From assembly GCA_002269645.1 (NCBI GenBank), contig NIVC01001835.1, positions 37,046 through 101,045 of the forward strand: a stretch of DNA of 64,000 bases, written 5' to 3'. Below the pieces are notes generated by a model that saw only the letters and a program-made list of their open reading frames with translations, did no database searches and was not told the origin of the DNA. This DNA is from Macrostomum lignano. Its lineage: Eukaryota. A program made the position numbers and the translations under genes. Positions 4,465-63,969 of the stretch are shown here, in pieces. Position 1 is the first letter of the stretch; the number at the start of each line of letters is the position of its first letter.

Positions 4465-17734
<13,270 letters not shown>

Positions 17735-25963: not shown

Positions 25964-26395
25964 GCTTTTAATCGAAATAATTGCAGCCGTTCCAGTTAGA
26001 ACCGGCTTACTTATATATAGTCGCATGTGAAACTCTCCTCCCGCTGTTTTGGTTAGCAAGATTCATATGCGGGCATGTTGAGCCACACCCTGGCTTGACT
26101 CCACTGTGTTCCAATCTTCCATTTCCATTGCGTAATGCGAGAGAATATTGTGCAAGTAGTAAGGCCTGGGTTAGACTACATTTTAGTAGCTTCTCTCAAG
26201 CCGCGACTGACTCCACTGACTCATGCATCTAGCGCGGTCGATTACTAGCTATAGTAATAGTACATGTCATGGACAAATGAATTAAAAGGACGCCAAATTA
26301 AATTTTCTTAGAAACGCATAAAGCTACATTCGAGAGAGAGAAAGCATAGCGCTGAATGGGGCTTCGTCATAGAAAAATCTCGTTGAGTAAAATCT

Positions 26396-28070
26396 TCAAC
26401 TCCTGACTTCTGAACTCAGCAACTCCTGACCAAGCAACTCCTGACCAAGCAACTCTTGACCAAGCAACTCCTGACCAAGCAACTCCTGACCAAGCAACTC
26501 CTGACCAAGCAACTCCTGACCAAGCAACTCCTGACCAAGCAACTCCTGACCAAGCAACTCCTGACCAAGCAACTCCTGACCAAGCAACTCCTGACCAAGC
26601 AACTCCTGACCAAGCAACTCCTGACCCACCAGCTCCTGACCCACCAACTCCTGACCAAGCAACTCCTGACCCACTAACTCTTGACCCACCAACTCCTGAC
26701 CAAGCAACTCCTGACCCACCAACTCTTGACCCACCAACTCTTGACCCACCAACTCCTGACCAAGCAACTCCTGACCCACCAACTCTTGACCCACCAACTC
26801 CTGACCAAGCAACTCCTGACCAAGCAACTCCTGACCCACCAACTCTTGACCCACCAACTCCTGACCAAGCAACTCCTGACCAAGCAACTTCTGACCCACC
26901 AACTCCTGACCCACCAACTCCTGACCCACCAACTCCTGACCCACCAACTCCTGACCCACCAACTCCTGACCCACCAACTCCTGACCCACCAACTCCTGAC
27001 CCACCAACTCCTGACCCACCAACTCCTGACCAAGCAACCCATGGCCAAGCAACCCATGGCCAAGCAACTCATGGCCAAGCAACTCCTGACCCACCAACTC
27101 CTGACCAAGCAACTCCTGACCAAGCAACTCCTGACCAAGCAACTCCTGACCCACCAACTCCTGACCAAGCAACTCCTGATCAAGCAACTCCTGACCAAGC
27201 AACTCCTGACCCACAACTCCTGACCCACCAACTCCTGTCCCACCAACTCCTGTCCCACCAACTCCTGTCCCACCAACTCTTGACCCACAAACTTCTGACC
27301 CACTAACTCCGGACCCACCAACTTCTGACCCACTAACTCCTGACCAAGCAACTCCTGACCAAGCAACTCCTGACCTAACAACTCCTGACCAAGCAACTCC
27401 TGACCCACTAACTCCTGACCCACCAACTCCTGACCCACCAACTCCTGACCCACCAGCTCCTGACCCACCAACTCCTGACCAAGCAACTCCTGACCCACTA
27501 ACTCCTGACCAAGCAACTCTTGACCCACCAACTCCTGACCAAGCAACTCCTGACCAAGCAACTTCTGACCCACCAACTCCTGACCCACCAACTCCTGACC
27601 CACCAACTCCTGACCCACCAACTCCTGACCCACCAACTCCTGACCCACCAACTCCTGACCCACCAACTCCTGACCCACCAACTCCTGACCCACCAACTCC
27701 TAACCCACCAACTCCTGACCCACCAACTCCTGACCCACCAACTCCTGACCAAGCAACTCCTGACCCACCAACTCCTGACCAACCAACTCCTGACCAAGCA
27801 ACTCCTGACCAAGCAACTCCTGACCCACCAACTCCTGACCAAGCAACTCCTGACCCACCAACTCCTGACCAAGCAACTCCTGACCAAGCAACTCCTGACC
27901 CACCAACTCCTGACCCACCAACTCCTGACCCACCAACTCCTGACCCACCAACTCCTGACCAAGCAACTCCTGAACAAGCAACTCCTGATCCACCCACTCC
28001 TGACCAAGCAAATCCTGACCAAGCAACTCCTGACCCACCAACTTCTGACCCAACAGCTCCTAACCCAATT
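26396..28070. repeat. 15-bp minisatellite with two alternating variants (CTCCTGACCCACCAA / CTCCTGACCAAGCAA)
   Basis: Directly visible; source of the GQELL/GGSGV shadow ORFs. Confidence 0.95.
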
Positions 28071-28174
28071 TAGTCTCTTAGTTAACGCAGAAACTCCCAA
28101 ACTCCTGTACTCCAGAAACTCCATAATTCCCACATGTATGAATTTCATTCATGTTCCATTTCCTAACCACCCAG

Positions 28175-28357
28175 CTGAACGAGACGACCACCCACGGCGG
28201 AAGCGACAGAGAATCAACGGAACTTCGCAGGCGTCGCCAATTCCAGCGAAGTCCTTCGCAGCTGGCTGACGTTCTCTGCGGCGATGATGACGAGATCGGT
28301 GACGATGGAGCCAGTAGCAACGGTGGGGGCACAACGCTCTCCTCAGACGAGACGGCT
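28175..28357 (+). CDS. Putative internal exon (61 codons, phase 0-0), product unknown
   Basis: cccag acceptor, gtaagt donor, open frame LNETTTHGG...SSDETA, coding-like composition. Confidence 0.45.
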
Positions 28358-29503: not shown

Positions 29504-29795
29504 GGGGTTGCAGCCTAGTGGTTAGAGAGTCCGACTCACGACTTGAAGGTCGAGGGTTCGATTCTCGATCCACTCAGAAGAATTTGTATCCTTGAGCAAG
29601 ACACTTAACTCTGCATTGCTTCAGTCCACCCAGCTGTAAAATGGGTGCCAGCAGTAGCTGGGGTAGCTGAGGGGGTGTGTGGCGACCCCCCAGTCCTTGG
29701 ACTGAACAGCCGTACGCAGCCTTCAGATGCGCCGCGCAATAGCTGCGGCTGAGCTGTCGGTTGCACATCTGGCCCTAATTGGGGAAGTGCAATCA
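29504..29795 (+). mobile_element. tRNA-derived CORE-like SINE, second copy
   Basis: Collinear with the reverse complement of 14870-15161 along head, CORE and 3' body. Confidence 0.85.
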
Positions 29796-41100: not shown

Positions 41101-43793
41101 TGACAGGTTAAAACTGTTTATGATTGAATATAATTTATAGAAAACTATTTTTTACTATTTATGTGTCTTTTACTACTTTCAATTCAAGTAATAAGTAGTG
41201 CATGAGATAATTGAGGAAGTTTTTTATGCATGCTTGAATTTTATGTATTTAGTTTTTACTGAATTAGATTTTCATTACTCGTACTTTTCTCTTTAACAGT
41301 AGAAAAGGAGTTTTTTACTTTCAATCTAAGCAGCTGCAATCAGAGTTGATGTGCGAATTGCGATTGCAATCTTAAACGTGCTGCAGACAGTCAAATTCGA
41401 ACGCAAACATTCATTTCAGCGTATTGAGATTTCACATCGTCAAAAAACAGAATCTTTCACATTTTCACAAGCTCGATATTTTGTATACTCGAAACTTGAC
41501 AAACTCGGAATTTTGCATCGTTAAAAGTTTCGAGCTTGCAAAAAGTTCGAGCTTGTGAAGTTTCGAGCTTGTAAAATTTTGAGCTTGTGAAGCTTCGAGA
41601 TTGTGAAGCTTCGAGATTGTGAAGCTTCGAGCTTGTGAAGCTTCGAGATTGTGAAGCTTCGAGATTGTGAAACTTCGAGCTTGTGAAGTTTCGAGCTTGT
41701 GAAGCTTCGAGCTTGTGAAGCTTCGAGATTGTGAAACTTCGAGATTGTGAAGCTTCGAGCTTTGAAGCTTCGAGATTGTGAAGTTTCGAGCCTGTGAAGT
41801 TTCGAGCTCGTGAAGCTTCGAGCTTGTGAAGCTTCGAGATTGTGAAGTTTCGAGCTTGTGAATCTTCCAGATTGTGAAGCTTCGAGATTGTGAAACTTCG
41901 AGCTTGTGAAGTTTCGAGCTTGTGAAGCTTCGAGCTTGTGAAGCTTCGAGATTGTGAAACTTCGAGATTGTGAAGCTTCGAGCTTTGAAGCTTCGAGATT
42001 GTGAAGTTTCGAGCCTGTGAAGTTTTGAGCTCGTGAAGCTTCGAGCTTGTGAAGCTTCGAGATTGTGAAGTTTCGAGCTTGTGAATCTTCGAGATTGTGA
42101 AGCTTCGAGATTGTGAAGTTTCGAGCTTGTGAAGCTTCGAGATTGTGAAGTTTCGAGCTTGTGAAACTTCGAGCTTGTGAAGTTTCGAGCTTGTGAATCT
42201 TCGAGATTGTAGAAGTTTCGAGCTTGTGAAGCTTCGAGATTGTGAAGTTTCGAGATTGTAAAGTTTCGAGCTAGTGAAGTTTCGAGATTGTGAAGTTTCG
42301 AGATTGTAAAGTTTCGAGCTTGTGAAGCTTCGAGATTGTGAAGCTTCGAGATTGGGAAGGTTCGAGATTGTGAAGTTTCGAGCTTGTAAAAGTTTCGAGC
42401 TTGTAAAAAGCGAACCTAAAAGCCTAGCTGAACGAACAGCCACTTCATTAACCACTTAACCACAGGCCTCAAACTGTGGACATACCCGAAGCTCAAGCCA
42501 CCGAGGACCCCCCAGACGATCTGGACGAAGCCTACTGGCTGCCGCCGGTGCCCGAGCAGTCGCCGCTGGCGCCGGGGCTGCATACCCGCAGCAGCCTGCT
42601 GCAGCGCCTCGCCGACCCGGAGATCCAGCCGGAGCGCAGCAGCCAGCTCGCTCCCATCAGCAAGCCGGTGCTGTGCAAACGGTCGCTTCGCTGTCGCCAG
42701 TGCGATCACAATTTGAGCAAGCCAGAGCTGAATCCGGCCGCGCCTAAGTTTAAAATTAACCTGTGCGCCCTTTACAATGTGCCCGAGATGCGCCTGTACA
42801 GCGTGGGAGATGGAGAGGGCGGAGAGGGCGACGACTGGTGAGTGTGTTGCGCAGGTCATCGAAATTGGGGCCGGAGGAAATTTTTATTTGGGGATCAATA
42901 TGTGGGATGGGGATTTTTTGGGATAAGTATAGTGTGGAATGGGGATTTTTTGGGATATGTATAGTGTGGGATGGGGATTTTTTGGGATATGTATAGTGTG
43001 GGATGGGGATTTTTTGGGATATGTATTGTGTGAGTTTGGGATTTCAGTTTGTGGGATAAATATAATGTGGAATGGGGATTTCAGTTTGTGGGATAAATAT
43101 AGTGTAAAATGGAGATTTCAGTTTATGAGATAGTATAGTGTGGGTTAGGGATTTCAGTTTGAGGATCAATGCAGTGCTGGATGAGGATTTCATATTGGGT
43201 TTAATGTGTCAAATAGGAATTTCAGTTTGGGAAAAAATTAGACGAAGAAGTTAGTTTTGCTTGGGTTGATTCGGGCACTGGGATTTACGAGTAGATAAGC
43301 CTCTATGGGGATTTTACCGTGTGCAACTCTCCCTAACACTTGCTGATCCTCGGCCAACCCCCCCCCTCCGCTCAGCTGCCAGCTGACCCTGCTGCTCACC
43401 AACCCGGCCTCCAAGCCCACCGGAGTCCGTCTGCGCTGCCTGGACAGCCGGCTAGCCCTGCCAGACCGCGAGTTCAGCCTCGGACCCTGCGGCGACGCCG
43501 CCTTAGACCTCGACGATCCCCTAGCCGCTGCCGGCGCCCAGTCGCCGAGCTCGGAGCCGGACAGGCCCGATGAGGTGGCCTTCCGCGGCCCCGGCAGGCT
43601 GGGCCTTCTCGCTCGACTGCGCTGCGCCAGACAGCTGGCCGCTAGGGAAGGCGTCCGTCTAGAATTGAGCTACGAATTTCGCAATATTGTGCTGCCGTCT
43701 GCCGCGGCTGGCGAATCTGTTGAAGTTCGTCGGCTGACCGCCGAGCTGCTGCTGAGGCCGCCAGCGTCGTCTGGCGCTGCTGCTAAGGCTTGA
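35124..43793 (+). CDS. DCTN4: Dynactin subunit 4 (p62), 5 exons, 468 aa
   Basis: Exons 35124-35252, 38566-38774, 39255-39533, 42466-42837, 43376-43793 (1407 nt, phases consistent). Motifs [18 protein letters not shown]...[63 protein letters not shown]. Confidence 0.95.
37440..38050 (+). pseudogene. Heavily decayed non-LTR (RTE-like) reverse transcriptase fragment in DCTN4 intron 1
   Basis: Discontinuous motifs in RT order: [49 protein letters not shown]; many stops. Confidence 0.65.
38945..39135. repeat. Short 34-bp tandem repeat (GGGTACCCGTCACAAAGACTCGTATGAACTGGGT)
   Basis: About 4-5 degenerate copies in DCTN4 intron 2. Confidence 0.75.
39630..40900. repeat. ~30-35-bp minisatellite (GTCACTGCTGCCCCATTGTGTGTTTGGGGGGG)n with variable G-run
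   Basis: Directly visible in DCTN4 intron 3. Confidence 0.95.
41530..42410. repeat. 16-bp minisatellite (GAAGCTTCGAGCTTGT / GAAGCTTCGAGATTGT)n
   Basis: Directly visible in DCTN4 intron 3. Confidence 0.94.
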
Positions 43794-47184: not shown

Positions 47185-47697
47185 TCTTCTCAGCTCTCCT
47201 CTCTCATCTCCCCTCTCTACCCTGCTCTCCACCCTCCTCTATCATCTCCCCTCTCTCCCCTGCTCTCCACCCTCCTCTCTCATCTCCCCTCTCTACCCTG
47301 CTCTCCACCCTCCTCTCTCATCTCCCCTCTCTCCCCTCTCTCCCCTGCTCTCCACCCTCCTCTCTCATCTCCGCTCTCTCCCCTGCTCTCCACCCTCCTC
47401 TCTCATCTCCCCTGTCTCCCCTCTCTCCCCTGCTCTCCACCCTCCTCTCTCATCTCCCCTGTCTCCCCTCTCTCCCTGCTCTCCACCCTCCTCTCTCATC
47501 TCCCCTCTCTCCCCTGCTCTCCACCCTCCTCTCTCATCTCCCCTGTCTCCCCTCTCTCCCCTGCTCTCCACCCTCCTCTCTCATCTCCCCTGTCTCCCCT
47601 CTCTCCCCTGCTCTCCACCCTCCTCTCTCATCTCCCCTCTCTCCCCTGCTCTCCACCCTCCTCTCTCATCTCCCCTCTCTCTACCCTCTCTACCTGG
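47185..47697. repeat. CT-rich ~38-48-bp minisatellite
   Basis: Directly visible. Confidence 0.92.
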
Positions 47698-47781: not shown

Positions 47782-48750
47782 TCAGTCGTCATCTCGCCTG
47801 CAGCCGCTGATAGCGACGAGAGCGTCCGGGCAGCGGACCCTCGAGTACACCATGGCGGGGTTGTCGGCCCCCCTGAACCAGTCGAATCGCCAGTAGCAGC
47901 CGTCGCGAATTTGCGCCGGCAGAGAGCCGCACTCGCTCCGTCTCGACACTCCGCCGTAGCGCTGGCCCCAGCCGTCTGGCCCCGCGTTCCACTGCGCGCT
48001 GCAGCCGTTGAAAATGCCGACACCGCCGCCTGGGATTTGCAAGTCGAACTGGTTCGGGTGCACGTCGCCTCCGCTGTTGGTGACCTGCACCACCATGGAT
48101 TTTCCCTGCACAGGGCCGTTGGTGAAGTCCAGCTTGTAGCAGGCGCAGCAGCGACCGCTCTCGTCCAGACCGGGGATGGTGGCGGCGGCGAAGCCGTAGG
48201 CCAGCTGGTCGCTCACCGCCCACGGCTTGTTGTTGTTGCAGGCGAACACGGGTCCGCCGTTGCAGCCGCTGGCACCGTTGGGATCGCTGGTCACTCCGTA
48301 GCCGTCGCGATAGCAGGCGCGCACGTATTTGTTATGGCCGGGCACTTTGCCTGGCCAGGAACAGCTGGGCTTGCAGCAGTCCCAGTAGCGGGTGGTGAAT
48401 CCTGGCACCTTGTTGCCTCCGCCGCCACCGCCGCCCCCGTTGTCTTCAATAACTCCGCACACCATGGTCATGTCACCAGTTGGGAAGGCATCGCTCTTTG
48501 ACACGCTACCTCGCTTCATCCAGCAGGTGCCACCATTGTGTTGAGTCCAGGTGAAATGGGTGCAGCCCTGAGTGTTGGCGCACCTTCCGCCGCACTGCTC
48601 TGAAGGGATTCGCACGTTCGACAAGTCGTTGTTACGAAAGTCGCAGCCATGCGCCCAGTTGTTGCCATTCCAGTTGATGTTGGCCAAGACGGAGCTTGAG
48701 CACAGGACCAGTACTGCAGCCACTAGTAGGCAGCTGTGTCTTAGCGCCAT
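47782..48750 (-). CDS. Secreted PAN/apple + GH45 (subfamily A-type) endo-beta-1,4-glucanase, intronless, 322 aa
   Basis: Signal peptide, PAN module, poly-Gly linker, GH45 signature TTRYWDCCKPSC, YGFAAA, CCACYKLDF, MVVQVTNSG, QFDLQIPGGGVGIFNGC, WGQRYGG, GCYWRFDWF; both catalytic Asp present. Confidence 0.95.
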   Translation of the reverse strand: MALRHSCLLVAAVLVLCSSSVLANINWNGNNWAHGCDFRNNDLSNVRIPSEQCGGRCANTQGCTHFTWTQHNGGTCWMKRGSVSKSDAFPTGDMTMVCGVIEDNGGGGGGGGNKVPGFTTRYWDCCKPSCSWPGKVPGHNKYVRACYRDGYGVTSDPNGASGCNGGPVFACNNNKPWAVSDQLAYGFAAATIPGLDESGRCCACYKLDFTNGPVQGKSMVVQVTNSGGDVHPNQFDLQIPGGGVGIFNGCSAQWNAGPDGWGQRYGGVSRRSECGSLPAQIRDGCYWRFDWFRGADNPAMVYSRVRCPDALVAISGCRRDDD

Positions 48751-48864
48751 ATCTGATTTCCTCTTGGACGGTTACGTAGTTTTGCGCTCTGGAAAAAATA
48801 GTTTGACGGTTCCGATGCTTTATAGCTACGTTGACAGGCCAAAAACCTGCTTGATGAATCAGTG

Positions 48865-49029
48865 GATTGATTGGACTAAAGCTATGCCTGCTGGATCGGT
48901 AGAGTGATTGGACTAAAGCTATGCCTGCTGGATCGGTAGAGTGATTGGACTAAAGCTATGCCTGCTGGATCGGTAGAGTGATTAGACTAAAGCTATGCCT
49001 GCTGGATCGGTAGAGTGATTGGACTAAAG
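48865..49029. repeat. 37-bp tandem repeat (TTGGACTAAAGCTATGCCTGCTGGATCGGTAGAGTGA)
   Basis: Period 48871 to 48908; about 4 copies. Confidence 0.9.
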
Positions 49030-49074
49030 TAGAAGGCATGAGGGGGCTTCTGGGACAAAATTTTTCACCTCCTC

Positions 49075-49282
49075 CATAATCCCATTAAATCCATCCATAT
49101 TATCCCTGACAGAATCAGAAAAAAAGGGGGGTCGCACTCGCTCCGAAAACGTCCTCCATAATCCACCTAAATCCATCCATATTATCCCCGACAGAATCAG
49201 AAAAAAAGGGGGGTCGCACTCGCTCACAAAACGTCCTCCATAATCCCATTAAATCCATCCATATTATCCCTGACAGAATCAG
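49075..49282. repeat. 82-bp subterminal tandem repeat (2.5 copies), possibly part of the viral TIR
   Basis: CATAATCC...ATATTATCCC...AGAATCAG at 49075, 49157 and 49239. Confidence 0.8.
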
Positions 49283-50118: not shown

Positions 50119-50720
50119 TCACATTCTCTCAATGATCAACGTCAATACAAACTCTTCACCGTTGAAATCAACACCCACCCCATCTTCAGTCTCAAACTGT
50201 AGCACAATCTCGTGAATCTCCTTATTACTCAATACAACTCTTTTCACTGGATTTGGTTTCTCTACCACCATCTGTCCTCCAGCTACAGAGTTGGAGATGT
50301 TGTACAAAATATTAGTTCGCTTTCCCTTAAATACCCAATCAAGACTGAGATTAGTTCTGATTAGAATATTCAAACCCTTTACAATGTCTGCTATATTGGG
50401 TGCTAAGAACAAACCGCGTACACTTTCCCGGGCCATGATAACGGCCCCCGTCGCTTGAGTGGCGGTCCGCGCCGCGGATTCTGCCTTATAAACTTTCTTC
50501 TCGAATCCTAATTCCCTATACCAAGTGTCATCTTTAAACTCAACCTCCGCATTTTTGTGAACTTGCATGACCACTCTCATTACAGTGAGATCATAGGATA
50601 GTTTGACAGGGAACAGTTTTTTATCTGGCTTACTCGCATCAGGTGTCTCAAAATGGCCTCTTTTAGTAAAAACGTTTTCTAGAAAGTAATTGTAGGTATC
50701 CACACTTTGCGTGCTAACAG
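50119..50720 (-). pseudogene. Minor capsid protein (penton), C-terminal part; split by transposon
   Basis: Joins in frame with 54022-53761 after removing the insertion and one TSD copy (..AEPVVFP/VSTQSVDTYNYF..). C-terminus NILIRTNL...NILYNISNSV.GGQMVVEKPNP...IHEIVLQFETEDG..VDFNGEEFVLTLII has the penton-type pattern. Confidence 0.8.
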
Positions 50721-50725
50721 GGAAT

Positions 50726-53700
50726 CACAGTGTATTTCTATGGTAAGATTTTTTGAAAAAATGGCCAATCAAGATTTTTACTATCATTAATAGATCACAT
50801 TTTTCTAGAGAGGAAGCCACAATATTAAAAAAATCTGTCGAGCGGTTGCTGAGTAACTACTGTTTTTCTGTTTTTCATGCTGTTTCATGCTGTTTTCATT
50901 TTTTTGCTTTGATACAGGCTATAATAGGCAAATTGGTATCAAAAACGTTATTCAATGTTTTTCTTTCAACATTAATAAATTATATTATTAGTATAAATTT
51001 AAAGAATGCTTGTACAATATAAAAACTTTCAGCTTGAAACGTAGTTGTACAATGTCAATATAAATTACACATTAGGAGTGAAAACAATGTCAAAGTCCAC
51101 ACTGACTACATGTCCTACACATGTCGGCTATTATAATGATGCACAGCCTGAAGCAAACGACTTCCAAAGCTGGGATTTTCTACATCCTTGACCTTGAAGT
51201 TCGCCCATAGCTGCTGAAAGTCGTGGTGCACTGCTTCAGATGCCTGTTCACTCCAGGGACCAAGTCCTCGCTGTTGCATCAAACAGAACTGTGGCACATG
51301 ATGCAGCACTGTGTGAACTTTCGGTGTCACTGAGATCCCGAGGTCCATGAACGCCACTTGAAAATCAGTGATCGTCTGCTGGAAATTGGAGGCCAGTTCA
51401 TTGCCAAAGCAGCTGGACACAACAAGCCTGAAGCAGCGCAGTGCAGCAACGTACGGCAAGCACTGTAGCGGGCACATCGATGCCAGAGCATCAACATTCT
51501 GCAGGAGCACTTTGCAGCTGTTGCCGGTAAAACTGCCTCCGTGAATTGCCTCCCTGGCGACGTGGCAGTGATGCAGCCATCTGTCACACTCTGGCCACAC
51601 TGACTGCATACTACAGTAAATGGTATTTACTACTCCAGTTAGCAGGTGCAGTTCAGGCGGTGGTACAATTTCTAGGACCATTGTTGAGGCTGGGAAATTT
51701 TCTAGAAGACAGGGACGTACCACATTTCCAAAATTCTTGGCAGCTGCAAGCTTAGAGCCAGAAGCCTGGAAGTTTGCATGGCTGTCTTCGAGAAGCTTCA
51801 GTGTGCGATCTGTGCCCTTCTGCAATAGCTTATTCTTGTGGGCATCGCACCAGCAGCAGGGATGAGCAGCACTGTGAGCCATAAGCCCAAGCAGCATGTT
51901 GCACAGCTTCAAGTCGCTAGCGATGGTAAATTTGCCTTGAAGACTGCTCAGTCCAGCTGCCCTCCACAGCAACTCCAGGTTCTGGTAATTTTCTTGAATA
52001 GCTGGTGCGATGGCTACAATAAGAATTCGTTTAACACCGGAGTGCTTTAGCCGACTGCTGCGAGAGTTGCTGCTACAGGCTGCCTGCGAAGGCTCAGTGG
52101 AGTCAACACACCAACTGGAATCAAACACAGACAGGCAGATCTTGAAGAACCCACCACCTCCATCAATGCCAACCTTAATCATACAGGTCGATGGGTTCAG
52201 TTGTCTTTCTTGAATAATTCGCTCGAGAAGCTGCTGAATGCGCACACAAATAACAGCTGGACGTGATGTTACTTCTGTCACAACTCCTCGCTCCATGTTG
52301 ACGAAGTCCAACTGTTGTAGTTCAAAAAAGCTGTCGAGCTGGTGGTGAATGTCAGACAGCTTTTGTTGGAGGTACGACTCTACAGCTGTTTTTGAACCCG
52401 ACGCTGCTCTAATATGGTGAGCCAGCTTCAGCATAGAGCGCGTGCTGAGGCCCATATCCTGCTGAATGCTCACCATGCTGCTGACGCTCAGCTGCTGTGG
52501 TTGCTTCGGCGTACTCTGAGATGGTGGCTCCACTTCCATGTAAAAGCTTTCTGCATTATGTGCCCTTGTAGCAGGAGTACAGACATGTGACTTGCCTCGA
52601 TTTAGCTGCGAGAGGCACTTCACACAGAGCTTCATGCTGACTGGGCGTCGAGTTTTTGACACAGTGCTGGCAGTGGGCTTGCAACCAATCCTACTTTGAC
52701 TGTCAGCGCTTGGCCTTCCTTGTGGTCGCCGATTAACTGCTGCTGGATGTCCAAAGTTTGCGGAGCTTTCTCTGGCAGCCTGACACACAATACAGTTGCA
52801 TCGAGTAGCTGCTCGGCTTCGTGTTTGAGGAGGCTGGGCTCCAATCTTAGAGTGGTCGAAGTTGGGCAGCGAGGACGAAAAGTTTCCTTTCTCGTACTCT
52901 AGCAGCGTTATCCTGCATTTTGTGCACAGAGCACTTGGTAGCCGATTGTCCTGCGTATCGTAGCCATGCATCTTGAACTCTGAGATGAGTGACTGCATGT
53001 GCTCATTTATCCGGCGTATTTCCTTGCCCTTATGCATGCAGATGAGGCAGACGATGAGACGAGCATCTTCGTGCGTTCTGGCACTGCTGCTTTTACTCAT
53101 AATGCCTGACACTGAGCGTGCTTGGTGTCGATTAAGAAAGGTGCTACACAACAAATCTGATATGTAATGAGACGCAGAGATTGTGCAATGAATATAAAAA
53201 CTTCTCTGGTTAGATTAAAGTGAAATCAATCGATAAGAGCGACTTATATATATTCATTGATTGCTGAGCAGACGAGTTTTTAGCTCAGCAAACTTGTGTG
53301 CATTGCGCACTGTATAGCACACTATTTGATTGAGTAATAGATGAGTGACTGCGTTCTTCAACTCCAAATCATGCACACGCAGTCTCCCCTCAATAGAGAA
53401 GTAGTACAGTTAGTACAAAACCCATTTGTTACATTCAATCACAATTGTACCCTGTATTTTTGGAACATTCATTTTGATTAGCATATGAAATGTGTGTAAA
53501 AAACAGCCTATTTGTTGGCTAAACAAATGGACCTTAAGCTTATAAGTGATTTTCTGTTTGAACTAGAAAAACAAAAACAAATAACACGAAACAGCATAAA
53601 ACAGCATTAAAAACAGAAAAACAGTAGTTTCTTAGCAACTGCTTGATGGATTTTTTAAAGTCTTGTAGCATTCTCTCTGGACATACATGATCTATTGATG

Positions 53701-53760
53701 ATAGTAAAAATCTGGGGTGGCCATTTTTTTCAAAAAATGTCACCATAGAAATACACTGTG
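50726..53760 (-). mobile_element. 3035-bp RAG1/Transib-like DNA transposon with CACAGTG termini and 5-bp TSD GGAAT
   Basis: GGAAT at 50721-50725 and 53761-53765; both ends start CACAGTGTATTTCTATGGT (19 nt identical); imperfect TIR similarity extends to ~50900 and ~53585. Confidence 0.95.
51115..53100 (-). CDS. DDE transposase with RAG1/Transib-like core and N-terminal Chapa/RAG1-like zinc module (661 aa from ATG 53100)
   Basis: GIDGGG (D, cf. RAG1 D600), ASDLK...GL...CCWC (D, cf. GYDEK...GL...CTLC), ELHLLTG, FTGNSC, KVHTVLHHV (HxxxxH), GPWSEQASEAVH (E, cf. E962). N-terminus H-x7-C-x2-C...LP-x3-C-x2-C...CxC-x2-C. No stops or frameshifts. Confidence 0.88.
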   Translation of the reverse strand: MSKSSSARTHEDARLIVCLICMHKGKEIRRINEHMQSLISEFKMHGYDTQDNRLPSALCTKCRITLLEYEKGNFSSSLPNFDHSKIGAQPPQTRSRAATRCNCIVCQAARESSANFGHPAAVNRRPQGRPSADSQSRIGCKPTASTVSKTRRPVSMKLCVKCLSQLNRGKSHVCTPATRAHNAESFYMEVEPPSQSTPKQPQQLSVSSMVSIQQDMGLSTRSMLKLAHHIRAASGSKTAVESYLQQKLSDIHHQLDSFFELQQLDFVNMERGVVTEVTSRPAVICVRIQQLLERIIQERQLNPSTCMIKVGIDGGGGFFKICLSVFDSSWCVDSTEPSQAACSSNSRSSRLKHSGVKRILIVAIAPAIQENYQNLELLWRAAGLSSLQGKFTIASDLKLCNMLLGLMAHSAAHPCCWCDAHKNKLLQKGTDRTLKLLEDSHANFQASGSKLAAAKNFGNVVRPCLLENFPASTMVLEIVPPPELHLLTGVVNTIYCSMQSVWPECDRWLHHCHVAREAIHGGSFTGNSCKVLLQNVDALASMCPLQCLPYVAALRCFRLVVSSCFGNELASNFQQTITDFQVAFMDLGISVTPKVHTVLHHVPQFCLMQQRGLGPWSEQASEAVHHDFQQLWANFKVKDVENPSFGSRLLQAVHHYNSRHV

Positions 53761-54022
53761 GGAATACCACAGGTTCTGCTGCTGCACCTTTCCATTTGTA
53801 ATAAAACTTATTATTTGCTGCCGACACATTGGGAACGTTTGACCAACCAGTGAAGTCGTTAAGATAGACATGATAATTAGCACCTGGATCCAGGCTAATC
53901 GCCTGCTCTAATTTTTGAATAAATATCCCGTTTGAGTCATTAATTCGCCCAGTTATTGTAATAGGAATGCTCTCCTTGGAGTGCGAAATAATATTATTTA
54001 GTCTTTCAGCAATCGCTTCCAT
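53761..54022 (-). pseudogene. Minor capsid protein (penton), N-terminal part
   Basis: MEAIAERL...LEQAISLDPG..YHVYLNDFTGWSNVPNVSAANNKFYY, a penton-type N-terminal pattern; reconstructed length 287 aa; directly downstream of MCP. Confidence 0.8.
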
Positions 54023-54044: not shown

Positions 54045-55331
54045 TTAAACTTTACTGGATGAATTGTTGATCATGTTAAGCTTCACCTTCCTCTCAAATG
54101 CATAGATAATGTACAAGTCCACGGGTGTTGCGTCAGTCCTCTCAATGTTAGTCACGATATTCACAGGGCTGTTATCAGTAGGCATTTGTCTGGCAGACAC
54201 ATCAGCGCCAAACATTGGATATAGAGTTCCATATTGAAGAGCTGTGATAGCAATTCCGTTGTTCTCTTTCACAGCCAAGTCGACCAACTCGCTGTAAAAT
54301 TTGCTAATCTTGTTCTGACTGAAATTTCCATTTTGTGGCAGTGCAGGGTAAAGATTATCACTGATTTCATGCTGAATGGACCGCACGTCTCCATGCATGT
54401 AGCGTATAATGCTATTTGGGTTTCTCATGCTAATAATAATATACCTTGGATTGCTGCATGATCCCTCTTTGATGCAGATGTTTGTTCTAGTTTCGTTTCG
54501 CTCATCTCGACACATGTAGGCTGTGTATGCAACATCAATGTCCTTCTCTATTGCCTTAAGATAATCTGCTTTTAGTGCAGTCTTTGGCTCAATGACTTCC
54601 AAATACAGCTCGATTCCGGTTAGCTTCACCTCCATCCTAGTGTGGTCCGCCCCAGTCCACAACACTCTACTGCGATCATCTCTAGTCATCTTAAAGGTGT
54701 AGCTAAAGTTACTAGTCAGTCGATTAAATGTATTACAGAATCCACTCATAAATCTCAGTGGTACAAATACATCAACAGACCGATACAGCGGGTTTTTAGC
54801 AGCATCATCAGCACCTTGCAATGCATAGTTGTATCTCTTCTTCCTCTTTTTATAGCCACTGTCATTGATGTCTCCTTCTTTTTCATCTGCAATAAAACCC
54901 GCACCGCTTCCCAACTGAATAAAATCAGGATTCTCGATCAAACAATGAGCGTCATAGACAATTCCAAAGTTGGCGATTCGCTCCAACTCAGTGCTCCCAT
55001 TCGATACACTAAACTCCTTGAACATGTACGCCCAAAAGTTACTGATCAGAGCCACATCCGCATCATGCTTGTCAACGTTAGCACGAGCCGCATCCGCACC
55101 ACCTTTTGTCTTGAATTGAAATGTCATATGGAAGCCGCTCTTAAAACTGTGCACACTAACCAAAGACGAACATCCATTGTATGTGAATGTCAGTGTTTGG
55201 CCAGGACCAAGATTAGTTTCATTCTGATTTTCCTGACTGGGAACTCTTACCTGAGTCGCTTTGATTGTGCTATCATCACTCAAAATAGGCTTGTTAATTT
55301 TGTAGAAAACTGGTGTCAGTGGGTCGTTCAT
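54045..55331 (-). CDS. Double-jelly-roll major capsid protein (428 aa), intact
   Basis: Size, position between penton and ATPase cluster, and pattern SDDSTIK...LISNFWAYMFKE...LERIANFG...VFVPLRFMSGFC...PRYIIISM...FGADVS fit Polinton/adintovirus MCPs. Confidence 0.8.
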   Translation of the reverse strand: MNDPLTPVFYKINKPILSDDSTIKATQVRVPSQENQNETNLGPGQTLTFTYNGCSSLVSVHSFKSGFHMTFQFKTKGGADAARANVDKHDADVALISNFWAYMFKEFSVSNGSTELERIANFGIVYDAHCLIENPDFIQLGSGAGFIADEKEGDINDSGYKKRKKRYNYALQGADDAAKNPLYRSVDVFVPLRFMSGFCNTFNRLTSNFSYTFKMTRDDRSRVLWTGADHTRMEVKLTGIELYLEVIEPKTALKADYLKAIEKDIDVAYTAYMCRDERNETRTNICIKEGSCSNPRYIIISMRNPNSIIRYMHGDVRSIQHEISDNLYPALPQNGNFSQNKISKFYSELVDLAVKENNGIAITALQYGTLYPMFGADVSARQMPTDNSPVNIVTNIERTDATPVDLYIIYAFERKVKLNMINNSSSKV

Positions 55332-57160: not shown

Positions 57161-57960
57161 ATGGACTTCTCAAACGACTTCAATCCTCACTGGACGCGTA
57201 ATCAGATTAAGTTTTCTCATCACGAGTCAATCCCGAGTCACTTCAGATGCATTGTTGTTGGTTCATCAGGTTCAGGTAAAACATTCAGAGTCTTTAACAT
57301 GCTTCTTAGACCTGGCTTTATCGACTATGACACTCTGCACATCTACTCTCCCACACTGTATCAAGATGAGTATAGAATGCTGATTGCAGGGCTTCAAAAC
57401 AAGCTGAACAAAGAGGACATTATTGCATGTTTTAATAACCAACAAATCCTTCCCAGCAACCCAGAAATTGTAGCTGCCGAATATGCAAAGCACCTCAAAG
57501 ACAATGAAAAATGGCAGAACATTAAAGTGTTCACCTATGGAGATCCACAGGCTGATCCAAAGACCAAACTTCTACCCCAACCAGATGAGCTAGAAAAGGG
57601 AGAAAGCATTTGATCGTCTTTGATGATTGTATGACAGGCCCACAGAAGCAGATAGAAAACTATTTTACAAGAGGGCGACATAACAATTGTAATGTAATTT
57701 ACATTGCACAGAACTGGTTCGAGCTCCCGAACAAAACAATTCGTGGGAACTGCAATCTGATTCTCCTGTTTCCAACCATTCCACAGGATAGGCTAAAACG
57801 ATTTTACAATGAGGTCATTGCGCCTGCCTATTTCATAAATCCAACAAAAAACTCAAGCAGAAAGATTTCACAAGAGGAATTCGTTAATCTTTGCTATGAC
57901 AAGTGGAACCAACCCTATCAGTTTGTCATGATCAACAAGGAAAAAAGAACTGTAATTTAA
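57161..57960 (+). pseudogene. A32/FtsK-HerA family genome-packaging ATPase, split by one frameshift at ~57603
   Basis: Walker A VVGSSGSGKT, Walker B LIVFDD, FTRGRH, IYIAQ, IRGN. Adding one A to GAAAG gives ...GEKHLIVFDD; may be intact in vivo. Confidence 0.9.
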
Positions 57961-59622: not shown

Positions 59623-60046
59623 CTATGAAACACAGCCAAGAATAATTTCCTTGTAGGTCTTTCGTGTTTTGGTCATTGCATACAAAACAGTCATGCACAG
59701 CTCACCGCAAATATCACTGCTAAGACCTTGGAGAATAAAGTCTGAGCGATAAATTTTTTTATTATTTTTTCCCTTCATATAATTTCTTAGCTCTTCTGGT
59801 ACTGCCGTCCCATAGCTATCGAAGTAATAACACTTGTGCTTGCGATCGGGATCAATCACCCAGCAAACCCAATGAGATCCTGGCTTATCGGTGGTGTCAA
59901 AGTTCATGATGAACTTCCTTTCTTTCCTTTCCTTTCCTTTCCTTTCTTAGAGGAAAATCAGGCAGAGTGTCCCTCATAAATATTCCTCTAAAGTTTGGGA
60001 TTTCCAGTTCGTTAGCCAAATCTTCAAGAAAGTTATTTGTCGTCAT
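59623..60046 (-). pseudogene. Adenain-like (adenovirus/Ulp1-type) cysteine maturation protease, frameshifted in an (AAAGG)n tract
   Basis: N-part MTTNNFLEDLANELEIPNFRGIFMRDTLP; C-part NFD...GSHWVC...YYFDSYG...LQ...ICGELC (H/D/Q/C catalytic set). Confidence 0.88.
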
Positions 60047-60140: not shown

Positions 60141-63100
60141 CTAACTCCCACCTCCTAAACCTAACCTCCAATGCCCGAACGGTAGACTGTTAATATTGTC
60201 ATCAAAAATGAATCTTTTATTATCTGCACCTGACAGTCCAATCTTTTTTTGCTGAATTGTGTGAATAATATGGTTTTTGGATTGTAGCTTTGAGAACTCA
60301 TGTGATGTCTTTTTGTTGCAATTCAAGGCGTCTCTGTATTCAGCTTCATTAATTTCCTTCCTAACCACGCGTTTCGGAATTCCCTTTGATTTTTTAATTG
60401 GGTCTGACGACTCACATTTTACAAAATAGGACTTTGCTCTCAACCCAATGAATTCAGTGATTATGTCACCAGCAATCTCGTCCTTCATTTTCCCAATCAC
60501 TTTCTTGTTAGTGGCGTCAAACACTTGATCGCCATTCTGTGTCCTGAAAGATTCATCATACTCAGACAAGTCAAACAAATATTTTTGCTGCAGCATGTCC
60601 TGATAAATGTCTTCTGTTTGAATGTCCATAATAAAACTGTCTGTGTCAGTGTACAAGAGTTTTATTTTATCCTTGTACTGCTGCTTCATGTCATAGAAGA
60701 ACTGGTACATCAGACGTTTTGATTCGTCGAGAACAGTGACACCTGTATAGATCGGCTTGCGCAGCGTCACCTTGGTTTTGTAAAATATGATCACACCTAA
60801 GTAGCTATTAAAGATATGGAGTTCTTTGAATGTTGGCTTTGACATATTTGCCTGAATAACAGCAGGCTCTGATGAGGTAACAAGTTTCAGGTTTGTTCTT
60901 TTCCGCTCATTCTCAAGAGTCTTGCCATAGACAGAGTTGTTGGCCAACTTAAAGAGGTTCTTGTCAAAGTCGTTGGTTGCTTTGGTCCTAAACTGGGTGT
61001 TCTTATCAATGTAGGGTTTCATCCACGCTTCCTCTGTAAATGTAAGAGCCCGGTGAACTTTAGTGACCCTGCAACCAAGTGAGATAAAATACTGAAGCAG
61101 TTTGTAATGGATTTTGTAACGTGTCTTGTTGTTTAGATTCTGTGTTAGTTTCTCTGTATGTTCTTTTTCTGTTCCTGACAGGTGCCAAGTTCCATTATTA
61201 TCATTGGGAGTTTCGATTATTTTCGGGCACTTGATGTTCTCTGGGAAGGGTGGAAAGTCAGAGAAATAGTCGTGAAGCTCTGGTGGAATGTAAACATCAA
61301 CCTCATAAATGGCAGCCAATGAAAAGTCCCACTTTAGTTCTGATGAGGGTAGCCATCGAAAATCTCTAACTGGAAGATCTTGACTCATCGCCCAACCGTA
61401 GAGATTATTAGCGTCCAAGTAAGTAATGTAGTTTGAGGGTTGCTCCTTATTGTAAGATTCAATGTAGGGATTGTTTGCTTTTGCATACCTGTTAACGCAA
61501 ATTGAGATCCCCCCTCGTTTTGACGATTCGACAAAATTGTACATGTCAATGTCTGTAAGAAGTTCAATGTACCAATCTGGATCTTGATCCATTTCATTTT
61601 AAGCAAAGATTCCCAGCTAGTGGCAGGCAGAGACACATAATGTGCTGGATCGAGGCCATATGCTGTGTACCAGGTGTATCTGAAGGTTTCAAACACATCG
61701 GCCAGCAGAAACACATCTGTGAAGAGGTAAAGCAGGTGATACTGGAAGAAGTTTTGACAATTAAAGTAATTATAGACATGCTTCGCGTGCTCATAGTCTT
61801 TGTCAGAGATTCCAGAGTCTGTTAGCTTTGAAAAGAACTTCTCCTGTGGTGGTAAACCTTCTTCAAATACGTGATACCCAGTAATATTTTCATAGGGGTA
61901 GAAGCCTTTCTTTCTTAAAAGTTTAAATGATTCATCAGTGTTGTTAATTTTACTTGCAAACATCTTTGTATATGTACATTGTTCATCTTTTAGATTCTTG
62001 CTTAGTTCGTCTAGACTGGCAGCTAGAAATTGATATGAATCCTTCAGTCTTATTTTACCTGTACCCGAATTATCCTGTTTAATATCAACACACTTAAACT
62101 TCTCCTTGTTCTCTGCGATGCAATCAAGGTGTATGTCTGGAATCATGCCGATTTTTTCAACTATTAAATGCATGTCATAGTTCTTTGCGTTGTGACAAAA
62201 TATCGTTAGATCATGAATGTTCAATTTTAGCTTTAGATTACAGGTGTTATGCGCTGCGCCTCTAAATTTCCCAGTAAAGTGGCAGTGGTCCCTAACGGTG
62301 GGGTTTTTTAAATCAGTGCAAGTTAAATGTTTCCTGCAGATGTGGCAATGAGTTGCTGATAGGAAATTGCTTTCATCCTCCTCAGACATATCTTATTGGA
62401 ACAGGTTGAAGGTGCTAATCACTTTTGCACTCTAACATTCTGGCAATAAACTGCTCCACACACTGCTCTCCAAAGAAATAATTATACTCAACAAGTCCTT
62501 TTGTATTAATAAAGGCATATGCTACTGAATTGGGGACATGTTTTTGTGTTTGAGTTTGTTTTTGTGTTTCCGGCATGATTGAGCATTCGAAATCAGCATA
62601 TACAACAAATGGGAGCTTCTCCATCTTGTGATAGTTCTTAAACGAAGATACTTCTCTTCAGCTGAAGGAAGAGAGCAGTTTGTTGGGTGATCCTCGCATG
62701 ATAATTCATGCTCTACTAGTTTTTTTAAACGCTCAGGTCCACTGTAATGCTTAAGGCACAAGCGGCAGATGGCAACAGCCTCGTGATGATTATTCAACTG
62801 TTTGTGAATGAGTCTTGAAAGATCTTTAATCCAAACATAGTGAGCCTCCTCTAGTAAATTACCAATCACTAGAAGATCCACTTCAGTCCGCCTTTTCCCT
62901 CGGATCTAAAACGTCTTTGCTACATCTGACCGGTTGAACTTTCTCAGTTTTTTCACTCCACTCAAAGACTGTGATTCTAATTTTGTTATTAAACACTTCT
63001 TCTAGCTTTGGGATTTGAGAGATCGCCAAACCTCCTTTGTCAAACCTGATTCCCTTCTTTTCGCATTCGATGAGATAGTAGTTGAAATAATTTTGATAAT

Positions 63101-63969
63101 TTGAGGTTCTTTCGGGGTGCGAGGTACACTATCATAAAGAAGTGCAGAAAGAACTGCCCATAGAGCACAGCAATTGTCTTTATTTTTAACATTTATGCAA
63201 GCTTTTTTGCCGGCAAGCTTGTGTGGGAGCTCTATATAAGAGGAGGCTTTAAGTGGGTCATATTTCATGACCATGACAGTCGCTCTTTGAATCCCTCCTA
63301 CGACCCATCCGGAACCTCTGGATGTAAACGCTTCAATTTTCTTATTGACATCTTGTAAGGAAAGGATCCAGTCTGTCTGTAGGGGTGAATGGCTTTGCCT
63401 TTGTTGTCATGTAATACTCGAGATGCTCAGTGGGTTTTGCAGGCATATAAAATGCAATCTTGAATGATATCTGTAGTTTAAAGGTCTTGCGTGTTTTGAG
63501 TGTGTGATCAACAACTGATTGGATGCTGTCTTTATAGTCGTAGATGTTTGCGGTGTATCCTTAATTGGGATTGTGTACTCTATGTAATGTTCTGTAAACT
63601 TCCTCTGTGCAAAATTAATCTCTTCAATGGCAAGCTCCGACTCTTTTAAATGAATTAATTGCTTTAATTTCTCTTGTTCCTGCTTATTTTGTGGGTACTT
63701 TGCTTTTTCACCAGTGAGAGTTTCGTATTTGTTAATTAAGTTGCGACTCCTCTCTTGGTGTTCCTTTGCAGGATTTTTTATAGGCGCGCATACTGGTTGG
63801 ATTTAATTGATTGATGATTTCCAACTGTTTTTCATAGCTTCCAGGTGACCAGGTCGTGTTAAACTTTTGCTTGCACGCTTTTCTTAGTAAATTACTTTTG
63901 TCTTGAAATGAGACGCCTTTTGAAAAATATTTGTTGACTAAATCTTTTTGCTGGATTAGCTTTTGGCAT
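60141..63969 (-). pseudogene. polB: Protein-primed family B DNA polymerase (TP/OTU-like N-region, exonuclease with endonuclease-VII-like insertion, polymerase), multiple frameshifts
   Basis: SRGSGW, SYIELP...INVKNKDNCCALWAV, HYVWIKDLSRL, VYADFEC, CHIC...VRDHCHFTGKFRGAAHNTCN, HNAKNYD, YLFTDVFLLADVFETFR, YLDANNLYGWAMSQ, KLANNSVYGK, YTDTDS. Putative ATG at 63969. Confidence 0.95.

Follow-up and report, generated by a model that had tools for sequence, protein, structure and literature searches.

A 64,000-nucleotide stretch of the Macrostomum lignano genome (GenBank assembly GCA_002269645.1, contig NIVC01001835.1, positions 37,046 to 101,045 of the forward strand; here called the window) contains a DNA transposon inside a gene of a Polinton, a virus-like element. 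On its predicted fold, the split gene is a minor capsid (penton) gene. How did one mobile element come to lie inside another, and what does this do to the gene that it interrupts? The answer favored here, at a probability of about 0.88, is that a Chapaev-type transposon jumped once, by chance, into the penton gene of a Polinton copy that had already integrated, and that the insertion would keep this copy from making a penton. An earlier note, made from the sequence alone, had described the locus as a RAG-like transposon that precisely splits a viral penton gene.

The Insertion and Its Empty Site

The insertion and the two gene pieces occupy the following positions.

50726..53760, minus strand: Chapaev-type DNA transposon of 3,035 bp with inverted repeats of ~185-193 bp and CACAGTG termini
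50721..50725, no strand: left copy of the 5-bp duplication GGAAT, directly abutting the transposon
53761..53765, no strand: right copy of GGAAT, directly abutting the transposon
50119..50725, minus strand: downstream piece of the penton gene, 99.7% identical to sister locus L032
53761..54022, minus strand: upstream piece of the penton gene, 87 codons, its frame continuing into the transposon end

The junctions read GGAAT-CACAGTG (50721-50732) and CACTGTG-GGAAT (53754-53765). The terminal 36-nt arms of the transposon are 94% complementary. Searching the genome with the right flank yielded 373 candidates; 40 of them were scored and 30 fetched. One of the fetched loci is that of the window, and the other 29 are sister Polinton loci. 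In 28 of the 29 sisters the site is empty and the flanks overlap by exactly 5 bases. The remaining sister, L045, is missing the left part. The earlier note had chosen this empty-site comparison beforehand as the test of its claim, and the sister copies match the junction that it reconstructed: removal of 50726-53760 plus one GGAAT restores a frame of 287 amino acids (aa). An open 287-aa frame spans the site in 19 of the 29 sisters; in the remaining 10 the frame measures 30-255 aa. The empty-site joint is also present, with 5-6 ambiguous letters, in contigs of all four public runs compared (four studies). The filled junction occurs once in the whole assembly.

A chimeric assembly of two repeats might also produce such a nesting. 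The transposon and the Polinton are both repeats, and among the contig pieces listed for the four runs none bridges the filled junction. The chance that the nesting is such an artifact is practically negligible. The exact target duplication fits the empty site of 28 sisters, which a mis-join would not yield. The exact transposon termini and the 14 differences private to this copy are likewise unlike the product of a mis-join.

The Interrupted Gene

Neither piece of the interrupted gene contains an internal stop when translated alone (200 codons were translated for the downstream piece), and 0/262 and 2/607 bases differ from the nearest sister in ungapped alignments. The upstream piece and the transposon end together form a chimeric 160-aa open reading frame (ORF) at 53540-54022. 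The claim that the insertion is the only lesion holds for the penton gene; for the Polinton as a whole it fails, as the packaging ATPase frame is also split.

A natural sister copy of the 287-aa protein has 13 relatives at 39-66% identity. Its sequence was used for structure prediction with 12 sequences aligned, and the model has a predicted local distance difference test (pLDDT) score of 76.7. The best structural match among 48,161 solved chains is the mavirus penton (Z 12.2, root-mean-square deviation (rmsd) 5.7, 240 residues aligned). Chains of the PBCV-1 capsid (Z 12.2 and 11.5), the Sputnik virion (Z 11.4) and a fowl adenovirus (Z 10.9) are also among the best matches. In BFVD, predicted viral structures labeled minor capsid or penton match the model with E-values of 1e-8 to 1e-11. 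A Pfam search returned no family for this protein. These matches agree with the architecture of virophage and adenovirus pentons, a single jelly-roll base with an insertion domain. As modeled, the interrupted gene is a penton gene, in agreement with the earlier note. Predicted strands fall at residues 18-60, before the break near residue 88, and at residues 204-286, after it. The jelly-roll strands are therefore divided between the two pieces, and by prediction neither of them should form the jelly roll or a folded penton.

The Transposase and Its Class

A single gene spans most of the transposon.

51115..53100, minus strand: 661-aa transposase in a single ORF, with conservation in 67 homologs and a RAG1-core fold

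The transposase model (pLDDT 89) is most similar to the RAG1 core (Z 23.3, rmsd 3.3, 409 residues aligned), followed by HzTransib (Z 15.6) and the P element transposase (Z 13.4). This search, made with the whole structure, barely probed the residues before ~200, including the N-terminal finger. The identity to RAG1 and HzTransib is 10-14%. A sequence search of solved structures with the single transposase gave no matches, and a profile reached only an E-value of 0.45 (RAG1). A Pfam search found no family for the transposase, and no RING finger is evident in it. The closest outside proteins are ~44-46% identical. A representative search returned 10,929 relatives, a number that shows only that the clade is large.

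Among the 67 homologs, D313, D396, C415, C418 and the pair L484-H485 are each conserved in 67/67. Conservation is 64/64 for H596, 62/63 for H601, and 59/62 and 60/63 for the candidate catalytic residues E618 and E622. The motifs C415xxC418, L484-H485 and H596-x4-H601 correspond to C(2)C, LH and H(4)H, and with the DDE triad they form the motif set of Chapaev. The N-terminal region holds a near-invariant set of Cys and His residues (H10, C18, C21, C59, C62, C101, C103, C106). Four of the 67 homologs have zf-AD matches (best E-value 0.0038), which fits the ZAD likeness given in 10.64898/2026.01.24.700457 (this and the other sources cited here are drawn on in excerpt).

In Chapaev the termini are CAC/GTG and the target duplications generally measure 3-4 bp (PMC4079192). 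Transib duplications are 5 bp, and those of RAG itself range from 3 to 5 bp (PMC1131882). The Chapa finger of Chapaev is described as missing from canonical Transib in the excerpts of PMC4411706 and 10.64898/2026.01.24.700457; the classification of Chapaev is also drawn from PMC12730594 and PMC3014272. The window transposon has CAC...GTG termini with inverted repeats, and its family has 4-bp duplications at five of six sites, the window site being the exception. Because of the 4-bp duplications, the CAC/GTG termini and the N-terminal Cys/His finger, a candidate Chapa domain, it is best filed as Chapaev. It is best regarded as an element that works like a RAG/Transib-type cut-and-paste transposon and is assigned to Chapaev by its features.

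The transposon could instead be read as a canonical Transib, with a 5-bp duplication and on the line of the RAG ancestor. The duplication at the window site is 5 bp, the terminus carries the CACAGTG heptamer, RAG1 and HzTransib are the top structural matches, and Chapaev is placed as a clade of a broad Transib superfamily in the excerpted PMC4411706. This reading is very unlikely to be right. Duplications are 4 bp at 5/5 other sites of the family and at 43/55 related-family sites, so the 5-bp rule of Transib does not apply. The conserved N-terminal Cys/His finger is present, whereas canonical Transib is without one in the same excerpts that describe the Chapa finger. The low identity to RAG1 and HzTransib and the empty sequence search of solved structures also speak against it. 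The RAG1-core fold agrees with Transib; the Transib label is rejected on the prevailing 4-bp duplications and the finger. The earlier description of the transposon as RAG-like therefore stands for the fold of its transposase but not for its class, which is Chapaev-type, and the 5-bp duplication is exceptional in the family.

The Transposon Family and Its Target-Site Duplications

The family of the window transposon contains 10 full-length copies with 98.7-100% identity at six distinct sites, and nine of these copies keep the 661-aa frame. The other five sites all have 4-bp duplications (ACTG, AGGA, GGGT, TATG and CCAC), and the 5-bp form is found at one of the six. A protein search with the transposase gave 314 candidates, of which 113 were scored; 60 of the 100 matches to other families were fetched. 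A terminal repeat pair is present in 58 of these 60 loci, at 55 distinct sites. The duplications at these sites are 4 bp (43 sites), 3 bp (2), 5 bp (1) and 2 bp (1), and 8 sites have none. The two sets together have 52 sites with duplications of 3-5 bp; at 2 of these the length is 5 bp, a rare variant. The termini of a decayed sister family, 84% identical, could not be delimited.

The window copy differs from its sister copies by 21-33 substitutions in 3,035 positions (0.7-1.1%). It is the most separate copy of the family, with 11 private substitutions and 3 indel columns. Two of the private substitutions are silent, five are replacements and four lie outside the ORF.

Two further observations concern related loci. 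In a Chapaev-clade family with CACCGGAAAAG termini (L111-L114, L118, L119), all six sampled loci share a near-identical palindromic A/T context (…TAAAAAATT / AATTTTTTA…), reflecting either a strong target-site preference or termini that are longer than called. In each of the sets L003/L004/L006, L008/L009/L010 and L200-L202, three contigs share an identical insertion site and host gene, a sign that chromosomes are duplicated or that the assembly left haplotypes unmerged.

The Host Polinton

The Polinton begins to the left of the penton gene pieces and extends past the end of the window. Its other features are as follows.

49022..49027, no strand: left 6-bp target-site duplication GACTAA, within a 37-bp host tandem repeat
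49028..49269, plus strand: left terminal inverted repeat beginning AGTAGA, 242 bp, 99.2% identical to the right repeat
54045..55331, minus strand: major capsid protein, 428-aa open frame; Pfam DJR-like match with E-value 2.7e-05, below the curated cut-off
57161..57960, plus strand: A32-like packaging ATPase in two frames (150 and 109 aa); Pox_A32 E-value 0.0023
59623..59907, minus strand: adenain-like protease frame, 94 aa; Peptidase_C5 E-value 0.0023
60141..63274, minus strand: protein-primed DNA polymerase B (pPolB) region in several frames; DNA_pol_B_2 E-value 2.7e-08 for the frame at 61385-62389

GACTAA recurs after the right terminus, ~4.8 kb past the window end. The element starts at 49028 and is ~19.7 kb long with the insertion and ~16.7 kb long without it. 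It has the termini and duplication of a Polinton/Maverick, together with polymerase B, ATPase, protease and a double jelly-roll capsid protein. Among these core proteins, the polymerase match alone passes the Pfam curated cut-off. No integrase gene was seen within the part of the Polinton that was read.

The core genes differ in their state. The major capsid protein is 428 aa in 26 of 29 sisters. The ATPase is a single frame in 10 of 14 sisters and is split in the window copy. The protease frame, compared in 14 sisters, is 133 aa in seven, 94 aa in four and 51-93 aa in three. The polymerase frame with the C-terminal part reaches only 415-677 aa in 11 of 11 sisters. The breaks in the ATPase, protease and polymerase are uncertain in meaning, since decay and assembly indels are indistinguishable. 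The transposon is not the sole lesion shown in this Polinton, and the idea that the insertion alone inactivated the element was rejected. The earlier statement that the insertion disables virion formation is right in that the penton gene is broken in cis. It is overstated in that 19 of 29 sisters could in principle supply the penton, and the split ATPase frame counts against it as well.

The Polinton differs from its nearest sister at 7 of 2,156 bases (0.3%). At two homologous host loci, 98-99% identical over the neighboring gene, the tandem repeat is present and the Polinton terminus is absent, which indicates that the window Polinton copy is itself young.

Across the genome, ~370-390 first-look candidates of one Polinton family were found, and those scored are 90-100% identical. 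Many of the candidates keep open major and minor capsid frames. Their number is far above the low counts that the excerpted PMC8097293 gives for most vertebrates. Contigs C1652, C276, C2829 and C3268 each have two Polinton matches. In the first three, the paired matches are ~5-6 kb apart in opposite orientation, which suggests inverted or nested copies.

A Single Insertion or Arrival as Cargo

A single jump would proceed as follows. The RAG1-like DDE transposase would bind the CACAGTG inverted repeats of a donor copy, which would be excised and then joined to the target by a staggered cut. The stagger would be 5 bp here versus the usual 4 bp in the Chapaev clade, and gap repair would leave the GGAAT duplication. 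The Polinton family would be a sizeable target, at roughly 0.3-0.9% of the genome as calculated from 200-390 copies of 10-16.7 kb.

By chance, 0.3-1.0 nestings would be expected among the 113 transposase loci that were scored, and 0.8-2.7 among all 314 candidates. Examination of 70 loci revealed two. The second lies on contig C217 at ~262-270 kb (L127, L197), where a reverse-transcriptase element that has a 166-bp direct repeat breaks a Polinton polymerase region. The reverse-transcriptase element itself holds a 3.2-kb Chapaev of another family, forming a triple nesting. No Polinton protein is found in the flanks of the other five sites of the window transposon's family, and transposase sequence is found in none of the 54 sampled Polinton loci.

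The filled junction is unique in the genome and two host loci are without the Polinton; a single insertion after integration is therefore the most likely history. The insertion is also recent, as the earlier note had supposed: the Polinton and its closest sister differ by only 0.3%, and the transposon differs from its own sisters by 0.7-1.1%.

Several points weigh against this history. The transposon is further from its nearest sister (21/3,035, 0.7%) than the Polinton is from its own (7/2,156, 0.3%). The donor copy is therefore missing from the assembly, which leaves the order of events unproven. A missing donor fits one that has moved or been lost, yet it is also compatible with arrival as cargo. 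The chance that one of the six sites of this family hits the Polinton family is only 2-5%, although the case was picked post hoc. The copy counts are of first-look candidates and not of curated elements. The filled junction is absent among the contig pieces listed for the four runs, and contigs drop rare variants.

The transposon may instead have entered the Polinton before integration, while the Polinton was extrachromosomal or in a different individual, and have come to this locus as its cargo. Capsid proteins from intact sister copies would then allow such penton-broken genomes to ferry Chapaev elements. Consistent with this, the window transposon is the most separate of its family and has diverged further than the Polinton around it. 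The termini of the Polinton are also intact, and the penton frame is open in 19 of the 29 sisters. There are precedents: Mavericks carry cargo in nematodes (10.1101/2022.07.12.499685), and a bracovirus contains a Chapaev (PMC4079192). Arrival as cargo is nevertheless improbable. There is just one filled copy. Pattern scans of viral contigs with both the transposase and the penton alignments, which are insensitive, found no relative of either. All 20 runs holding the transposon (8 studies) are from one organism, and no RNA entries are on record among these listed runs. The best outside protein relatives are distant (~44-46% identity), and many families of the same clade reside in the host, so no outside source is needed. 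The earlier suggestion that Polinton virions ferry transposons between hosts is not borne out by the single filled site, the viral contigs or the one-organism distribution. It is more improbable still that the Polinton arrived with the Chapaev inside and that penton-broken genomes with intact ends are packaged with the help of sister copies.

Comparison with Known Systems

The window transposon resembles Chapaev of the CMC/CMCT clade (PMC4079192, PMC4411706, PMC12730594) in its CAC...GTG termini, family-wide 4-bp duplications, single ORF, DDE core with the C(2)C, LH and H(4)H motifs and N-terminal Cys/His finger. Unlike Chapaev, the window insertion has a 5-bp duplication, and unlike Chapaev3 it has no TWA 3-bp target. 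It resembles Transib and RAG1 (PMC1131882) in its core fold, its CACAGTG terminus and, at the window site alone, its 5-bp stagger. It differs from them in its 10-14% identity, its 4-bp rule and its N-terminal finger, and it contains no RAG2-like gene.

The host element resembles the Polinton/Mavericks of PMC8097293 in its AGT.../...ACT inverted repeats and 6-bp duplication and in its genes for pPolB, an A32-like ATPase, a protease and major and minor capsid proteins. Unlike those Polintons, as far as the excerpt describes them, it belongs to a family of several hundred candidate copies in one genome.

Transposons nested in such elements have precedents. Secondary transposon insertions in Mavericks were routinely masked in a vertebrate survey (PMC8097293), and one proposal has a MULE jumping into a Maverick of a nematode (10.1101/2022.07.12.499685). 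Introners occur in 25% of dinoflagellate viral elements (Maverick-Polinton-like viruses), mostly gained after integration, and the idea of a vector is raised there (PMC11957031). An apparently intact Chapaev3 lies within a bracovirus (PMC4079192). The MULE, introner and Chapaev3 cases share with the window a transposon in a virus-like element and the vector hypothesis. Unlike them, as far as the excerpts describe them, the window insertion breaks a structural gene, is single-copy and bears no sign of cross-species transfer. A literature search found no Chapaev inside a Polinton by title or abstract start, which does not show that the case is unpublished. The window case is a clean nested transposition of an already described kind, as transposons in Mavericks and a Chapaev in a virus have been published.

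Neighboring Sequence

An intronless 322-aa gene (47782-48750, minus strand) lies ~280 bp from the Polinton. Its product, an animal cellulase, has a hydrophobic stretch at the N terminus and contains a PAN domain as well as a GH45 endoglucanase domain (E-value 2e-73). Near-identical copies are present on contigs C434 and C164. Tandem arrays are found at 26285-28200 (~15 bp), 41460-42330 (16 bp), 47190-47690 (C/T-rich) and 48850-49020 (37 bp). Inverted arms at 14864-15161 and 29504-29795 are perhaps the ends of another element.

Implications

Chapaev-clade transposases sometimes make the 5-bp stagger that is typical of Transib and RAG, and the Polinton family of the Macrostomum lignano genome is large and young and retains many open capsid genes. 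If Polintons with a broken penton were packaged with the help of sister copies, they would be vehicles for RAG-related transposons between animal hosts. Direct evidence of DNA transposons carried by Polintons between animals is scarce, and the window case would matter more if the filled form turned up in particles or in a second species.

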